Assembly (NCBI RefSeq): GCF_055900595.2
Contig: NZ_CM148325.1
Direction: 5' to 3' (one strand)
DNA: 64,000 bases
The notes below the pieces were generated by a model. It saw only the letters and a program-made list of their open reading frames with translations. It had not been told where the DNA came from and ran no database searches. The position numbers and the translations under genes are program-made. Positions 39,710-64,000 of this stretch are shown here, in pieces (within the stretch, counting starts at the first letter, position 1; every line of letters starts with the position of its first letter).

Positions 39710-39936
39710 CTCTCCTTAGGAATAAAACTAGATGTATAATCTATTGTTTTTTCATTTGTTGTTTTGTTTGTGTTTTTTAGGGGCCACCAATAAGGCCCCT
39801 TGCGCAGTTCGAATTCTTCTGGTGCTATTTTTCCTCTTTTTTCTGTCTTCCTCCATTATTCTGTTTGACTCGATGTTCTGTATTACGAAATCGAATTAGA
39901 GGGCAGATACTTAGAAATTACCAGTTCAGCTTTCCA

Positions 39937-40722
39937 TTAGTTCCGGATGTTTAAACGTGATATGCGCGGAGCCCTTCTTAAAGTATCTGATACTGAACAT
40001 CTCATCTTCATAGCACTCTTTACCCTGAACAGACTGGATGTGCCATCCTGATGAATGGTTATGTTTTTCCCGTTGCCGGGGATGGGGGTGCCGCTGAACA
40101 GATGTAGCATTCTTTCCAGGTCGGCGAGTCGGTCAGTCTGTTGTCCGGTGATAAGATGAAATCCCCACCGGTCCCATCTCACCAGATTGTTGATAATGAT
40201 TTTACTTCCAAATTTACAGGGAGAGTTGGTTTTATAATTCCAGCTCAGTTCCCTGAAGACGTTAATCACTCCCCGCTTAAACACCTCATCCTTGTTCTGG
40301 TGCACTTGTTCAAATGTGCTCAGAATGTTCGCTTCGCTGATTTCCTGAAAATTATCGTACTCCAGTGAGCGGTACCATGTATCACGGGCCTGTGCATCCA
40401 TTAAGGAAAGCATCCCTGAACGTTGCATCAGGTCACGCCAGATTTCACGGTCAAGGTTGCGGGTAATGGCTTTCATTGCGGTTTCCTGTTTCTCCTTCAG
40501 CCAGCAGCCACAGCGAAAATCCTGTTTCATGGCCCAGTCCGGGGCGGTTTTACCTCCAATACTTTCCGTCAGAATTGAGATTTTAGCCAGTTGCCGGATA
40601 AGTGTGTCGATTGGCAACAGTGTACTCTTTCGTACAGCCAGAATGTGGCAGACTGAGGTGGAACAGATAACGTCCGTATGCCCGCTGACCACCTCCGGGC
40701 GGGAGAGTGTGGTATCTGACAT
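39937..40722 (-). CDS. Hypothetical protein, first gene of the island next to the core junction
   Basis: 261-aa ORF, separated from the upstream YeeW-like gene by a hairpin terminator; no family recognised from sequence alone. Confidence 0.45.
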   Translation of the reverse strand: MSDTTLSRPEVVSGHTDVICSTSVCHILAVRKSTLLPIDTLIRQLAKISILTESIGGKTAPDWAMKQDFRCGCWLKEKQETAMKAITRNLDREIWRDLMQRSGMLSLMDAQARDTWYRSLEYDNFQEISEANILSTFEQVHQNKDEVFKRGVINVFRELSWNYKTNSPCKFGSKIIINNLVRWDRWGFHLITGQQTDRLADLERMLHLFSGTPIPGNGKNITIHQDGTSSLFRVKSAMKMRCSVSDTLRRAPRISRLNIRN

Positions 40723-40756
40723 AATCGTTTTTCCTTTTTGCAGATAAATGAAAACG

Positions 40757-40785
40757 CCAGCTCTGTTCAGGCTGGCGTCAGGAGA
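40757..40785 (-). terminator. Rho-independent terminator after the YeeW-like gene
   Basis: Minus-strand hairpin acgccagcctgaacagagctggcgt followed by a T-rich tract. Confidence 0.45.
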
Positions 40786-40806
40786 ATGAAGTCTGGTGAG
40801 TGAGAT

Positions 40807-41232
40807 TCACCGGTTCTGGTGCAGAAGTTGCAGTTGGTGCAGGGTACGGATATCCTCCCTGGCCTGTTCGATACAGGGCAACAATGCTGCCGAATCCGTT
40901 TTATCCTCATCGTTGTCGAAAATAATTCCGGACCCGCAGTCGATATTGTCCTGCAGCCACGCAATGAGGATATCCAGCGCTGTTTCAGTGGTTAATGGCA
41001 TCACGCTCTGTATCACTGTATTGTCTTCCGGCAACTGATGAGAGCTGGCAGAAGTCGCCGGTGTTTCGGTAGCGTCACGTTCATCCACCACGCGGAGTGA
41101 ATAACCGTATTCAGCGACCTTGTTAATCAGTTCAGTGAGCTCAACACCATCAATGTCAACGACAATTCGCCCTATATTCAGTGCCTGTACGTTAACGCTG
41201 TCTGCTTCCAATGTCAGGGCCAGTTTCATCAT
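40807..41232 (-). CDS. YeeW-like protein following the CbtA-type toxin
   Basis: 141-aa acidic ORF whose start overlaps the toxin stop (ATGA); position matches yeeW in CP4-type islands. Confidence 0.6.
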
Positions 41233-60902: not shown

Positions 60903-61185
60903 TGTATCTTATATTGTGATATCGGTGCTGCTGCTGTTATTTTTTGTTGTATTTGTGACGAATGGTTAAGAATAAAACATGAGTTGGTGATTATCAGGAC
61001 AGGTTGCTTGTATATGAAGATAACAAAGGCGGCATTTATTTTTGCGCTGTCAGTGTGGAGTGTTGCTGTGATATGTCTTTTATTATTTGTACTGGTTGTT
61101 CTGGGATAGCCATAGTGAAATAAAAAGCTGTCTGAATTAAATTATTTTGAACACATATTTTAATTCTGCACTAAATTCAGAATGA

Positions 61186-62572
61186 CCCTGTAAATAATTC
61201 TGTGTAACTGCCGCCGTATTAAAGGTGCTCGCTAAGGCGGTCACCGAACTCGATAATAAAACGGCTCATTGCCAGCCGCCAGTTCTGGATTGGCATACTC
61301 CATTTTTTGACGCCGACTGTATCGCCAGATAAATCACTTTTCGCACCGAGTCGTCCGTTGGGAACACCTTGCGCTTCTTTATCGCCTGCCGAATGACACT
61401 GTTCAGCGATTCGATGGCATTCGTCGTGTAGATGGCCTTGCGGATATCCGGTGGGTAACCGAAGAAGGTGTTGAGATTTTCCCAGTGTGTGCGCCAGCTC
61501 TTGCTGATTTGCGGGTATTTTTCATCCCAGACGCCTGCAAACTTATCCAACGCCATCAACGCCGTTTCCTCTGTCGGGGCCTGATATACCGCTTTCAGCC
61601 CGCTGGTGACGGCTTTGTAATCCTTCCACGACACGAATTTCAGGCTGTTGCGCACCATATGGATGATGCAGAGCTGAATATGCGTCTGCGGGTACACGCT
61701 ATTTATCGCTTCCGGGAAGCCTTTCAGGCCGTCCACGAAGGCGATAAGGATATCGTTCAGGCCGCGATTTTTCAGTTCCGTCAGTACATTCAGCCAGAAC
61801 TTTGCACCTTCATTTTCGGCCAGCCACATATCCAGCAGCTCTTTCTGACCGTCGGTATTGATGCCCAGCGCGAGGAACACCGCTTTGTTAATGACACTCC
61901 CGCTGTGACGAACCTTAACCACAATACAGTCAAGATAAACAATGGGATACAGTGCATCCAACGGTCGGTTTTGCCATTCAGAGACCTGTTCTTTAACCGC
62001 ATCGGTCACTTTGGATATCAGCGTGGGCGAGACATCGGCGTCGTACATTTCTTTGAAGGCTGAGGTAATTTCGCGGGTAGTCATCCCTCTGGCATACAGC
62101 GCCAGGATCTGGTTGTCCATGCCGGTAATGCGGGTCTGATTTTTCTTCACCAGTTGTGGTTCGAAGGTATTTTCACGGTCACGCGGCGTGTTAAGTTCGA
62201 TCTCGCCATCATCGCACAATACCGTTTTTGACGAGTAGCCATTACGGGTATTAGAGCCTGATTTAGGAGCATTTTTCTCATGACCTAGATGGTCAGTCAG
62301 TTCTGCATTGAGCGCCGTTTCGACGGTAAGCTTTGTCAACATGCGTGAAAACTGGTTGAGGTCGGCTTCGGTTTTAAGGCCTTTGGCCAGTTCAGCCGCA
62401 AGGACTTTAAGTTTCTTTTCGTCCATCGTTTGCCTGTCTCCGTTGTTGGAGTGAACATATCAAAAACAGGCAATTACACAATTTTAATTACAGTCTCTTC
62501 AGAATGGGTAATCAGTGACCGTCCTGACGGTCACTTTAAAGAAAATGCATATTACACAGAATGGTAAACAGG
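61186..62572 (-). mobile_element. IS256-family insertion sequence, boundaries approximate
   Basis: Imperfect inverted repeats CCTGTAAATAATTCTGTGTAAC (61186) and its counterpart GCATATTACACAGAATGGTAAACAGG (62547-62572) flank the transposase gene. Confidence 0.7.
61220..62426 (-). pseudogene. IS256-family transposase with a frameshift in a homopolymer near the 3' end
   Basis: ORF-track frame (386 aa) ends at 61266; the expected C-terminus KKWSMPIQNWRLAMSRFIIEFGDRL continues in the +1 frame to a stop at 61220; the switch sits at the T6/A6 run 61315-61320. Confidence 0.8.
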
Positions 62573-62639
62573 CTCAACATAGAGCTTGAAGGTAGTTGTT
62601 GCCTTGTAATAAAATGTGTGATTCATAGACATCGTTTCA

Positions 62640-63223
62640 ATTTTCTCAGTTCAAGTTCAGGCTTGTAATTCTGTTCCTGTATATGCTCTTCATTGGGCTG
62701 ATAGTTTGCATGAACGGCATCGGAGTATGGTGTTTTCTCAGCAAGTTCAAAGTAGCGTTCCATCGGAGTTTTACCGTTGTGAGCGCTATGAGGACGTTCC
62801 CTGTTATAGTAATGCTACCATTCTGCTAGCAATCCCTTCAGGTCATCAGCAGAAAGATCTACGGTAGCGTAAAACTCAGCTTTGTCTGTCTTTTGGGAAC
62901 GTCCAACCTTTATTACATCAGGCGACAACTACCTTGAAAAACGCCGTTACTCACCGATCCCCTTCACGGTAATACGCACTATTGCCAGTGAGATTGAATG
63001 AAGTCGTTTTAACTCGCTTTGAATACGTCTTGCACCCAGATTTCGCTGAGAACGTAACTTCCAGAATCAGAGCGACTTCGCAAGTGCTGGTTTTCGTTGA
63101 TGGTGAACGCTTGGAGCGACGGCTGTAGCTTTCCAGACCAGCGATGCCCTGAGCCAGATATCTGCGCCACCATTTACACAATGTGGGCCGAGAAGTGCCA
63201 CAGTGACGGCATACAAATGTCAA
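62640..63223 (-). pseudogene. IS481-type transposase remnant with internal deletion
   Basis: N-terminal HTH ...TLCKWWRRYLAQGIAGLESYSRRSKRSP (62951-63223) and C-terminal tail ...YYNRERPHSAHNGKTPMERYFE (about 62640-62830) in different frames; catalytic core missing. Confidence 0.5.
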
Positions 63224-63266
63224 CGACGGATGAAAAGTGGCTCTTACGCAACCTGGATGGAGATTT

Positions 63267-64000
63267 TCATGCCAGTGGACTCATGACCCTCTGCCTGAGT
63301 AGTTCAAATCCGGCTCGACCATACATCTGGCCTTTCAGCATTTTTAGTCGATTTACATGACTTTCGACAACCCCCATTATTCCAGCGACTGCTGATTGCC
63401 TCACATATAGCCGCAGCATCAGCTGCCATCCTTGCAGCCACGCGCCGAAGTTACCACTTTCTCGTTGCTCTTTTAACCACTCCCTCCATGGGGCCAGAAG
63501 TCCTCGCTCTGGAGGCCGGGTTGACATTTCAGGGAATGTTCCTGAACACACCCAGAGACTGACTGTCACACGTGATAAGCCTGTAATACGGGATATTTCC
63601 CCTGAACCCACATCCCTTGTTATGTAGTGCCATAACCTCTGTCCAACGCTGATGCCGTTTTTGGCGGGTTTGCTGTTTAAGGCGTTCCGGACGACGGAGC
63701 GATGCTACAGGCACAGACAGTACTGGCTTAGGTGATTTCTTTGGTGACAACCCACTGGCAACAAGACGTATCAGAGGCATCTGTCTGTACATCATTCGTT
63801 CAGGCGCATCGCCAATATTTTTTAGCAGGTGCCATCGATCAGCTATCTGTCTGGCCTGAGGTGCACCTTCACGTGCTGCTGTCGCATAGACTCCGCCACG
63901 GTCACGTGAGACAACCTGTATTTCCGGATATTTTCTGAACCAGGTCGCCAGCGTACTCTGATCGCAACCGGGAAGCAGGACGAGGGGACGGTGAGTATCA
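63267..64000 (-). pseudogene. ISL3-family transposase, 3' portion, frameshifted; 5' part lies beyond the window end
   Basis: Minus-strand translation from the window edge gives ...RKYPEIQVVSRDRGGVYATAAREGAPQARQIADRWHLLKN..., then in other frames ...VESHVNRLKMLKGQMYGRAGFELLRQRV; at least two frame changes. Confidence 0.6.

Follow-up and report, generated by a model that had tools for sequence, protein, structure and literature searches.

The window analysed here, 64,000 nucleotides of Escherichia coli contig NZ_CM148325.1 (assembly GCF_055900595.2), contains the transporter genes ynjB, ynjC and ynjD and, directly upstream of ynjB, one end of a genomic island. With a probability of roughly 0.85, this is the integrase-distal end of an approximately 92-kb pathogenicity island that was inserted at the ynjA-ynjB junction by a P4-family integrase and is related to the islands at pheV, from which it differs in the seven bases of its core. 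According to the proposed mechanism, a P4-family tyrosine integrase would insert the island by site-specific recombination into the 9-bp spacer between ynjA and ynjB. Strand exchange would take place in the 7-bp core CTCCTTA, with the stop codon of ynjA and the ribosome-binding site of ynjB being rebuilt. The insertion would place ynjA, the integrase and a second copy of the core beyond the end of the window, split the ynjABCD transcription unit, and leave ynjBCD downstream of co-oriented island genes. The core block CGGACTC of the pheV type would have become CTCCTTA, which matches the ynj site, with the flanking core positions nearly conserved.

The island is a member of the class with P4 integrases and a close relative of the GI-pheV islands, with a target other than tRNA-Phe and an insertion site that is undescribed in the searchable literature. 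Among the papers that could be searched, nothing relevant was found that links ynjA or ynjB to an island or an integrase, and a recent study of GI-pheV islands does not mention the ynjA/ynjB site (PMC11537424). A search of the GTDB species-representative genomes returned no match. As an element it is an ordinary virulence island of E. coli: its relatives carry aerobactin, Sit and Iha, and the window shows a YadA-like adhesin. Surveys of islands anchored on tRNA genes would miss an island at ynjA/ynjB.

The island boundary next to ynjB

In K-12 and in the island-free sister strain E200086, the end of ynjA is 9 bp from the start of ynjB. In the window, a 227-bp non-coding spacer (39710-39936) lies between ynjB and a minus-strand open reading frame (ORF) at 39937-40722. 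The window and E200086 are 100% identical over positions 1-24000 and 99.97% identical over 23400-39722, where the match ends. Therefore, the usual neighbour ynjA is absent from exactly that point. The sole difference between the two sequences near the junction is an A-to-G change at 39719. No tRNA gene is present within the 64-kb window. The GC content is approximately 52-55% in the core genes and the conserved module of the island, and 41-48% in the cargo genes; the island is mosaic.

The breakpoint has been defined by an alignment of the window, K-12, E200086 and both island junctions of strain DG341-1. The empty site, in the orientation of the window, reads CATCATCT-CTCCTTA-AGAACGTTTT, the ynjB-side junction in the window reads CATCATCT-CTCCTTA-GGAATAAAAC, and the ynjA-side junction reads GGTAGTACC-CTCCTTA-AGAACGTTTT. 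The 7-bp core CTCCTTA, at 39712-39718, is the only block common to the empty site and both junctions, and is bordered by a mismatch on either side. It occurs once in empty sites and at both junctions of occupied ones, forming a direct repeat in which 11 of 14 positions match when the neighbouring bases are included. Read in the sense of the ynj genes, the core is TAAGGAG: the stop codon of ynjA and then the Shine-Dalgarno sequence of ynjB. As a result, ynjA retains its stop codon and ynjB its ribosome-binding site after the insertion. The core is the putative crossover (overlap) region as well as the boundary of the island.

These comparisons agree with the sequence-only reading of the window, which had placed the start of a mosaic island directly upstream of ynjB after a 227-bp spacer, with ynjA away from its expected position and ynjBCD severed from the genes upstream; ORFs, Pfam matches, GC content and the comparison with E200086 and K-12 all concur. 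It had also proposed that a K-12-type ynjA-ynjB region would define the breakpoint, as it did at 39712-39718. The expectation of a tRNA gene or a visible attachment (att) repeat did not hold, since the window contains no tRNA and the 7-bp repeat can be seen only against related genomes.

The spacer between the core and the first island gene corresponds to the integrase-distal att arm. It carries a GC-rich hairpin, GGGGCC-N8-GGCCCC, which is conserved in the arms of pheV islands though the arms are only about 75% identical overall. The hairpin may serve attP as a site of protein binding or as part of its structure. It was not called as a terminator, being without a downstream run of T on either strand.

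The far end of the island and its mobility

The complete genomes searched were 5,426 of E. coli, in which several island-bearing records represent one strain deposited more than once. The junction of integrase and ynjA is present in 29 of them (0.5%). The 222-bp terminal arm of the island occurs at an identity of at least 99% only in the same 29 genomes, always as a single copy. The ynjB-island junction is full length in 28 of these; in the remaining genome, Ch1, it is interrupted by IS2. The island is rich in insertion sequences (IS), which could suggest that a chimeric assembly or an IS-mediated rearrangement produced the junction at about 39.7 kb. However, the junction is no artefact of assembly: it recurs identically in independent genomes, namely the 28 complete ones, the IS2-interrupted one, and several independent draft and complete assemblies. 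Furthermore, no IS is located at the boundary, the sequence of which is an att arm homologous to the arms of pheV islands. This explanation can be given practically no weight.

The island extends beyond the end of the window, as the earlier reading had supposed, and its copies in the island-bearing genomes are 72-99 kb long as calculated from their coordinates. Window positions 39662-64000 are 99.75-100% identical to DG341-1, the exceptions being two additional IS elements and one additional repeat of the adhesin. The island of DG341-1 has a length of approximately 90.7 kb, and its far end consists of an intact 395-residue tyrosine integrase, then GGTAGTACC-CTCCTTA-AGAAC, and then ynjA-ydjZYX-xthA. 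The integrase, which lies beyond the window in DG341-1 and in the lineage-matched genomes, belongs to NCBIfam NF007246 (E 2.6e-89) and has the Pfam domains Arm-DNA-bind_3, Phage_int_M and Phage_integrase. The annotated content of the DG341-1 island includes shiF-iucABCD-iutA (aerobactin), sitABCD, sodC, ibrAB-like genes, iha and PhoX, as well as pseudogenised genes of integrative conjugative elements (ICE) and many IS remnants. The aerobactin operon of the relatives begins about 2.4 kb past the end of the window. In strain GF60 (NZ_CP172185.1), the two island junctions are about 730 kb apart and on opposite strands, which indicates that a large piece of the chromosome was inverted, with one endpoint of the inversion lying within the island.

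Assemblies from the lineage of the window were found by exact protein matches of the ydjZ and ynjB alleles, and both empty and occupied sites were recovered among them. GCA_964249055.1 has identical YdjZ and YnjB proteins, shares the IS3 insertion that interrupts radC in the window, and over 21 kb matches the window at 99.94% identity. In its single contig of 5.35 Mb, ydjZ-ynjA-integrase is located at about 3.4767 Mb and the island-ynjB junction at 3.5692 Mb, which is a distance of about 92.5 kb, and the ynjA-side core is identical to that of DG341-1. In GCA_964257775.1, from the same lineage, both island ends lie on one contig and ynjA is intact; GCA_050190815.1 is 99.991% identical to the window.

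The absence of ynjA from the window, which ends inside the island, is what would be expected if the gene had been deleted or replaced when the island arrived and the operon had truly lost its first gene. By contrast, all 29 complete genomes with the junction have an intact ynjA beside the integrase at the opposite end of the island, the assemblies of the lineage of the window keep the gene, including the one that shares the IS3 insertion, and the core on the ynjA side preserves the ynjA stop codon. Loss of ynjA is thus very improbable, and the statement of the earlier reading that the ynjBCD operon has lost its first gene is most likely wrong. Because ynjA is intact at the far junction in assemblies of the same lineage, it is almost certain that the window genome also has an intact ynjA, shifted by about 92 kb instead of deleted.

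The island is nearly identical (about 0% divergence) in chromosomal backgrounds that differ by about 5%, and on both sides the breakpoint is at the core. The flank in the window differs from that of DG341-1 by 5-71 mismatches per 500 bp (a density of 2-14%). On the ynjB side, the last mismatch is at 39661 and none follows up to 43401, placing the step in divergence no more than about 50 bp from the core. On the ynjA side, mismatches between the lineage genomes and DG341-1 occur all along ydjX-ynjA, the last of them about 75 bp short of the core, and a single mismatch follows in about 9.4 kb of island sequence. Large islands are known to move by homologous recombination of large chromosomal fragments, flanks included, as proposed for transfer of the high-pathogenicity-island type, in which the integrase would play no role; moreover, the region flanking the island is unusually diverse among E. 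coli, with 89-98% identity to K-12 per kb. Such an origin is nevertheless improbable here, because the flank in the window is 99.97% identical to the island-free sister right up to the core and about 5% different from the donor-like DG341-1, the divergence falls to zero about 50-75 bp from the core on both sides, and no donor-type single-nucleotide polymorphisms were found in the flank next to the core. The drop in divergence at both junctions, together with a flank equal to that of the island-free sister, indicates that an essentially identical island underwent at least two independent, integrase-mediated, site-specific integrations.

An integrase, repeats derived from the target, and att breakpoints in different backgrounds are all present, and by these features the element belongs to the integrase-mobilised islands of the P4-integrase type. 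The window contains no conjugation-type genes, and the DG341-1 copy has only two annotated ICE genes, both pseudogenes, which does not fit an integrative conjugative element. Likewise, no structural or lysis genes of a prophage are annotated across the approximately 90 kb of the DG341-1 copy.

EcoCyc presumably extends the ynjABCD transcription unit to ydjX. The four genes ynjABCD have been treated as one operon (PMC2731931). In the occupied site, the terminal genes of the island, from the GTPase gene to the DUF4942 gene, have the same orientation as ynjB, and neither a sigma-70 consensus promoter nor an intrinsic terminator reached the threshold on the minus strand of the spacer. Therefore, read-through from the island into ynjBCD is possible, and it is plausible that ynjBCD has lost its native promoter; both consequences for transcription are deduced from gene order and spacer sequence. 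The separation of a conserved operon between the stop codon of one gene and the ribosome-binding site of the next provides a clean natural test of polarity and read-through.

Relationship to pheV islands and the change of the core

The integrase has 89% protein identity to the pheV-island integrase, which in over 500 genomes directly adjoins an annotated tRNA-Phe, as at the pheV locus next to yqgA. Beyond it, the nearest integrase clusters belong to other Enterobacterales and reach at most 80% identity. Counterparts of the distal arm with 72-76% identity are present in more than 1,100 genomes, and the two that were inspected are distal ends of pheV islands, one beside yghD and the other near kps genes. 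Both the proximal and the distal att arms are colinear with the arms of pheV islands, with an identity of 73-86%. A weaker DNA match to the integrase (86%), in a genome of enterotoxigenic E. coli (locus L006), is a copy ending in TGGTGCCGGACTCGGAATCG, a remnant of the 3' end of tRNA-Phe. The tRNA-Phe remnant at that copy is internal to a composite island, and for this reason the copy was useful only for recognising the link to tRNA-Phe. From its integrase and arms, the island appears to be a derivative of islands of the GI-pheV/pheU type that target tRNA-Phe.

The cores of the two types differ mainly in one block. The pheV type reads ...GAAGTGAAAG-TGGTGCC-CGGACTC-GGAAT-GAAACTG..., and the ynj type reads ...GAAGTGAAGG-TAGTACC-CTCCTTA-GGAAT-AAAACTA.... 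The blocks CGGACTC and CTCCTTA match at two of seven positions, whereas the adjacent TGGTGCC and TAGTACC differ at two of seven and GGAAT is unchanged. The replaced 7-bp block is exactly the stretch that is identical to the ynj target. The degenerate tRNA-like stretch TAGTACC...GGAAT is all that the island retains of tRNA-Phe. In GI-pheV islands, repeats of 19 or 23 bp cover the register of the core, and the 7-bp block lies inside the 19-bp repeat (PMC11537424). The replacement of the block may have retargeted the island from tRNA-Phe to ynjA/ynjB, as inferred from this comparison. A natural change of site affinity, in which a GI-pheV-type island moved by replacement of the 7-bp overlap of its attP, with recent mobility and at least two independent integrations of an element of about 90 kb, is an evenly poised proposition.

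Alternatively, the island may truly reside at ynjA/ynjB while its likeness to pheV islands reflects modular mosaicism; the 7-bp change would then be ordinary divergence, and the target would be set by residues of the integrase or by arm sites. The arms are only 73-86% identical, so a block with two matches in seven could have arisen by drift; the chance of this is roughly 0.005 per block, with many possible blocks. In addition, 44 positions distinguish the two integrases, among them some that are nearly invariant elsewhere (V131, F299L, A312G and E377K). However, the divergent block coincides with the only stretch shared by island and target, flanked by mismatches on either side, and falls within the repeat of the pheV islands. 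In phage lambda, moreover, the identity of the overlap dictates site affinity, as in the saf mutants. Mosaicism is a possible but doubtful account.

Several points weigh against the main reading of this DNA as one end of a pheV-related island that an integrase inserted at ynjA/ynjB. The far end of the island is outside the window, and for this particular genome the presence of ynjA is taken from near-identical relatives. No joined attP, excised circle or tandem form (junction ...GAAGGTAGTACCCTCCTTAGGAATAAAAC...) was found in the complete E. coli genomes, the GTDB species representatives or the JGI metagenomes; assemblies rarely capture rare circles. Beyond the seven core bases, likeness between the ynj target and the core arms of the island is poor (11 of 19 positions) and does not account for recognition of the site by the integrase. 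Although 19 of the 44 differences between the integrases are in residues 247-299, this cluster was set aside as an adaptation of specificity and gives no evidence of one, because the segment varies across the whole integrase family and some of the changes arose on the pheV branch. To our knowledge, no experiment has mapped the crossover position for this group of integrases.

The closest known systems are the GI-pheV/pheU-type islands with intP4 integrases, such as PAI-pheV of CFT073 (PMC11537424). The ynj island shares with them an intP4-type integrase with the same three domains and homologous, colinear att arms, as well as the distal module of GTPase, DUF932, antirestriction, RadC, DUF987, CbeA/CbtA and DUF4942 genes, a similar size range, and an IS-rich mosaic with aerobactin and iha cargo, which for the ynj island is seen in relatives. 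Unlike these islands, which insert into the 3' end of tRNA-Phe with 19-23-bp repeats, the ynj island targets the junction of two protein-coding genes without a tRNA, has a 7-bp repeat and a different core block, and occurs in only 0.5% of complete genomes. The saf mutants and secondary-site integration of lambda follow the same concept, in which alteration of the 7-bp overlap of attP makes a chromosomal site whose overlap matches the preferred one; the mutants are, however, laboratory phages with a lambda-type integrase, whereas the ynj case concerns a natural island with a P4-type integrase and an inferred mechanism.

The K-12 elements CP4-44, CP4-6 and CP4-57 have P4-type integrases, are small, occupy tRNA or tmRNA sites or are decayed, and are without virulence cargo. 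They resemble the ynj island, as characterised by Pfam, in their YeeP-like GTPase, DUF932, antirestriction, RadC, DUF987, CbeA/CbtA, YagK/YfjJ and AlpA genes. SHI-3 (at pheU) and SHI-2 (at selC) of Shigella are chromosomal aerobactin islands with a P4-type integrase, many IS and tRNA targets; they resemble the ynj island in aerobactin, integrase type and IS richness and differ from it in the tRNA targets.

The ynj and pheV islands constitute a matched pair, with 89% identical integrases, colinear arms and different 7-bp cores, which makes the crossover position and the choice of target testable. If the change of site affinity is true, the pair would show where pheV-type integrases, whose crossover site is unmapped, exchange strands, and would provide a matched system for what sets the choice of target in P4-family integrases.

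Gene content of the window

Gene identities are based on Pfam, NCBIfam, Rfam and PGAP annotation of the near-identical DNA of DG341-1.

Table 1. Features of the window from ynjD to the window end (coordinates in window positions)
Feature	Position	Strand	Details and evidence
ynjD, ynjC, ynjB (core ABC-transporter genes)	36379..39709	-	ORF list; RefSeq annotation of near-identical DNA
ynjB	38540-39709	-	K-12-type start at 39706
Integrase-distal att arm	39719..39936		GC-rich hairpin at 39781-39801
DUF4942 gene	39937-40722	-	Pfam PF13708, E 8.7e-43; PGAP: frameshifted in identical DG341-1 copy
DUF5983_N + DUF957 fusion ORF	40807-41232	-	Pfam PF25638, E 8.3e-26; PGAP annotation
CbtA toxin (predicted)	41229-41603	-	Pfam PF06755, E 5e-60
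CbeA/YeeU antitoxin (predicted)	ORF 41693-42181; PGAP 41693-42061	-	Pfam PF06154, E 4e-50
Hypothetical gene	42111-42755	-	
DUF987 gene	42774-42995	-	Pfam
RadC-like JAB gene, IS-split	43058..44794	-	Pfam RadC over model positions 16-121 only; ORF 43058-43384
IS3-family element inside radC	43401-44658 (1,258 bp)		NCBIfam IS3; 3-bp duplication CAT; IS911-like ends
Antirestriction gene	44811-45290	-	Pfam
DUF932 gene	45372-46190	-	Pfam
DUF905 gene	~46291-46443	-	PGAP/gene calls
Hypothetical gene	46449-47126	-	
YeeP-like GTPase	47245-48129	-	Pfam
Hypothetical cargo gene, low GC (41%)	48232-49185	+	
Hypothetical cargo gene, low GC (41%)	49182-50057	-	
IS10	50597..51925 (1,329 bp)	+	9-bp duplication CACCCAGTA; 402-aa IS4-family transposase; RNA-OUT
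YagK/YfjJ gene	53006-53737	+	Pfam
Hypothetical gene	54094-54666	+	
AlpA-like helix-turn-helix gene	54735-54971	+	Pfam
Second YagK/YfjJ-domain gene	~55172-55720	+	
ProQ/FinO gene, frameshifted	55738-56246	-	PGAP annotation
IS1 remnant, transketolase fragment, transposase fragment	56619..57910		PGAP of 99.8%-identical DG341-1 region
YadA-like trimeric autotransporter adhesin	58691-60385	+	NCBIfam NF033478
Sigma-70 region-4-like helix-turn-helix protein	60447..60902	+	Pfam PF08281
IS256-family element, IS3-family fragment, ISL3-family element (runs off window end)	61219..64000	-	

The minus-strand module of the island and the plus-strand YagK-like, AlpA-like and adhesin genes named in the sequence-only reading were recovered by Pfam and NCBIfam. 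Of its gene labels, those of the module stand, with the exception of the YeeW-like label given to the ORF adjoining ynjB, which is a DUF4942 gene; the label probably fits the DUF5983_N ORF better. In pheV islands, the N-terminal part of DUF5983 and DUF957 are encoded by separate genes (162 and 65 residues), and the single fused ORF in the window therefore points to an internal deletion. The adjacent minus-strand ORFs with PF06154 and PF06755 constitute a predicted type IV toxin-antitoxin pair, CbtA/CbeA. The two low-GC cargo genes have no match in Pfam, NCBIfam or PADLOC, and the unnamed cargo genes as a whole gave none in PADLOC and NCBIfam beyond weak P-loop ones. The genes from 53006 to 56246 appear, from their domains, to be a regulatory or maintenance module. 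Upstream of the first YagK/YfjJ gene, about 1 kb (51926-53005) is without an ORF of at least 60 codons and is unannotated also in DG341-1; it includes an AT-rich 13-bp tandem repeat at 51988-52053.

At least six IS-type elements had been expected, and seven IS-type segments are present: the IS3-family element, IS10, the IS1 remnant, the transposase fragment, IS256, the IS3 fragment and ISL3. Neither the IS3-family insertion in radC nor IS10, which is specific to the window, is present in DG341-1. An Rfam match to isrC falls within the IS3-family element of radC. The adhesin contains a 99-bp (33-residue) tandem repeat in 3.2 copies at 59506-59817 (Tandem Repeats Finder), one copy more than the otherwise 99.8%-identical gene of DG341-1.

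The ynjBCD genes are only about 94% identical to those of K-12, and a source in Escherichia other than E. coli was considered and rejected, because eight E. coli genomes match positions 1-24000 at 100% identity. The ynjI gene, which in K-12 lies between gdhA and topB, is absent at 31952-32063, as it is from DG341-1 and E200086. At 22793-22951, yeaC is almost directly joined to pncA; the ydjE-ydjL sugar-acid cluster of about 9 kb, which is present in K-12 and DG341-1, is absent from the lineage of the window. The ansA-sppA interval (24710-26281) contains an extra segment with a SIMPL-domain gene, an IS200/IS605 tnpA and a match to STnc490 RNA at 25585-25708, which is found in E200086 and not in K-12 or DG341-1. 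The chromosome on both sides of the insertion site (window ~30000-39700; locus L005, 16300-29000) has a per-kb identity to K-12 of 89-97%, and this divergence, which is greatest in ynjC, is far above that of the first 24 kb of the window.

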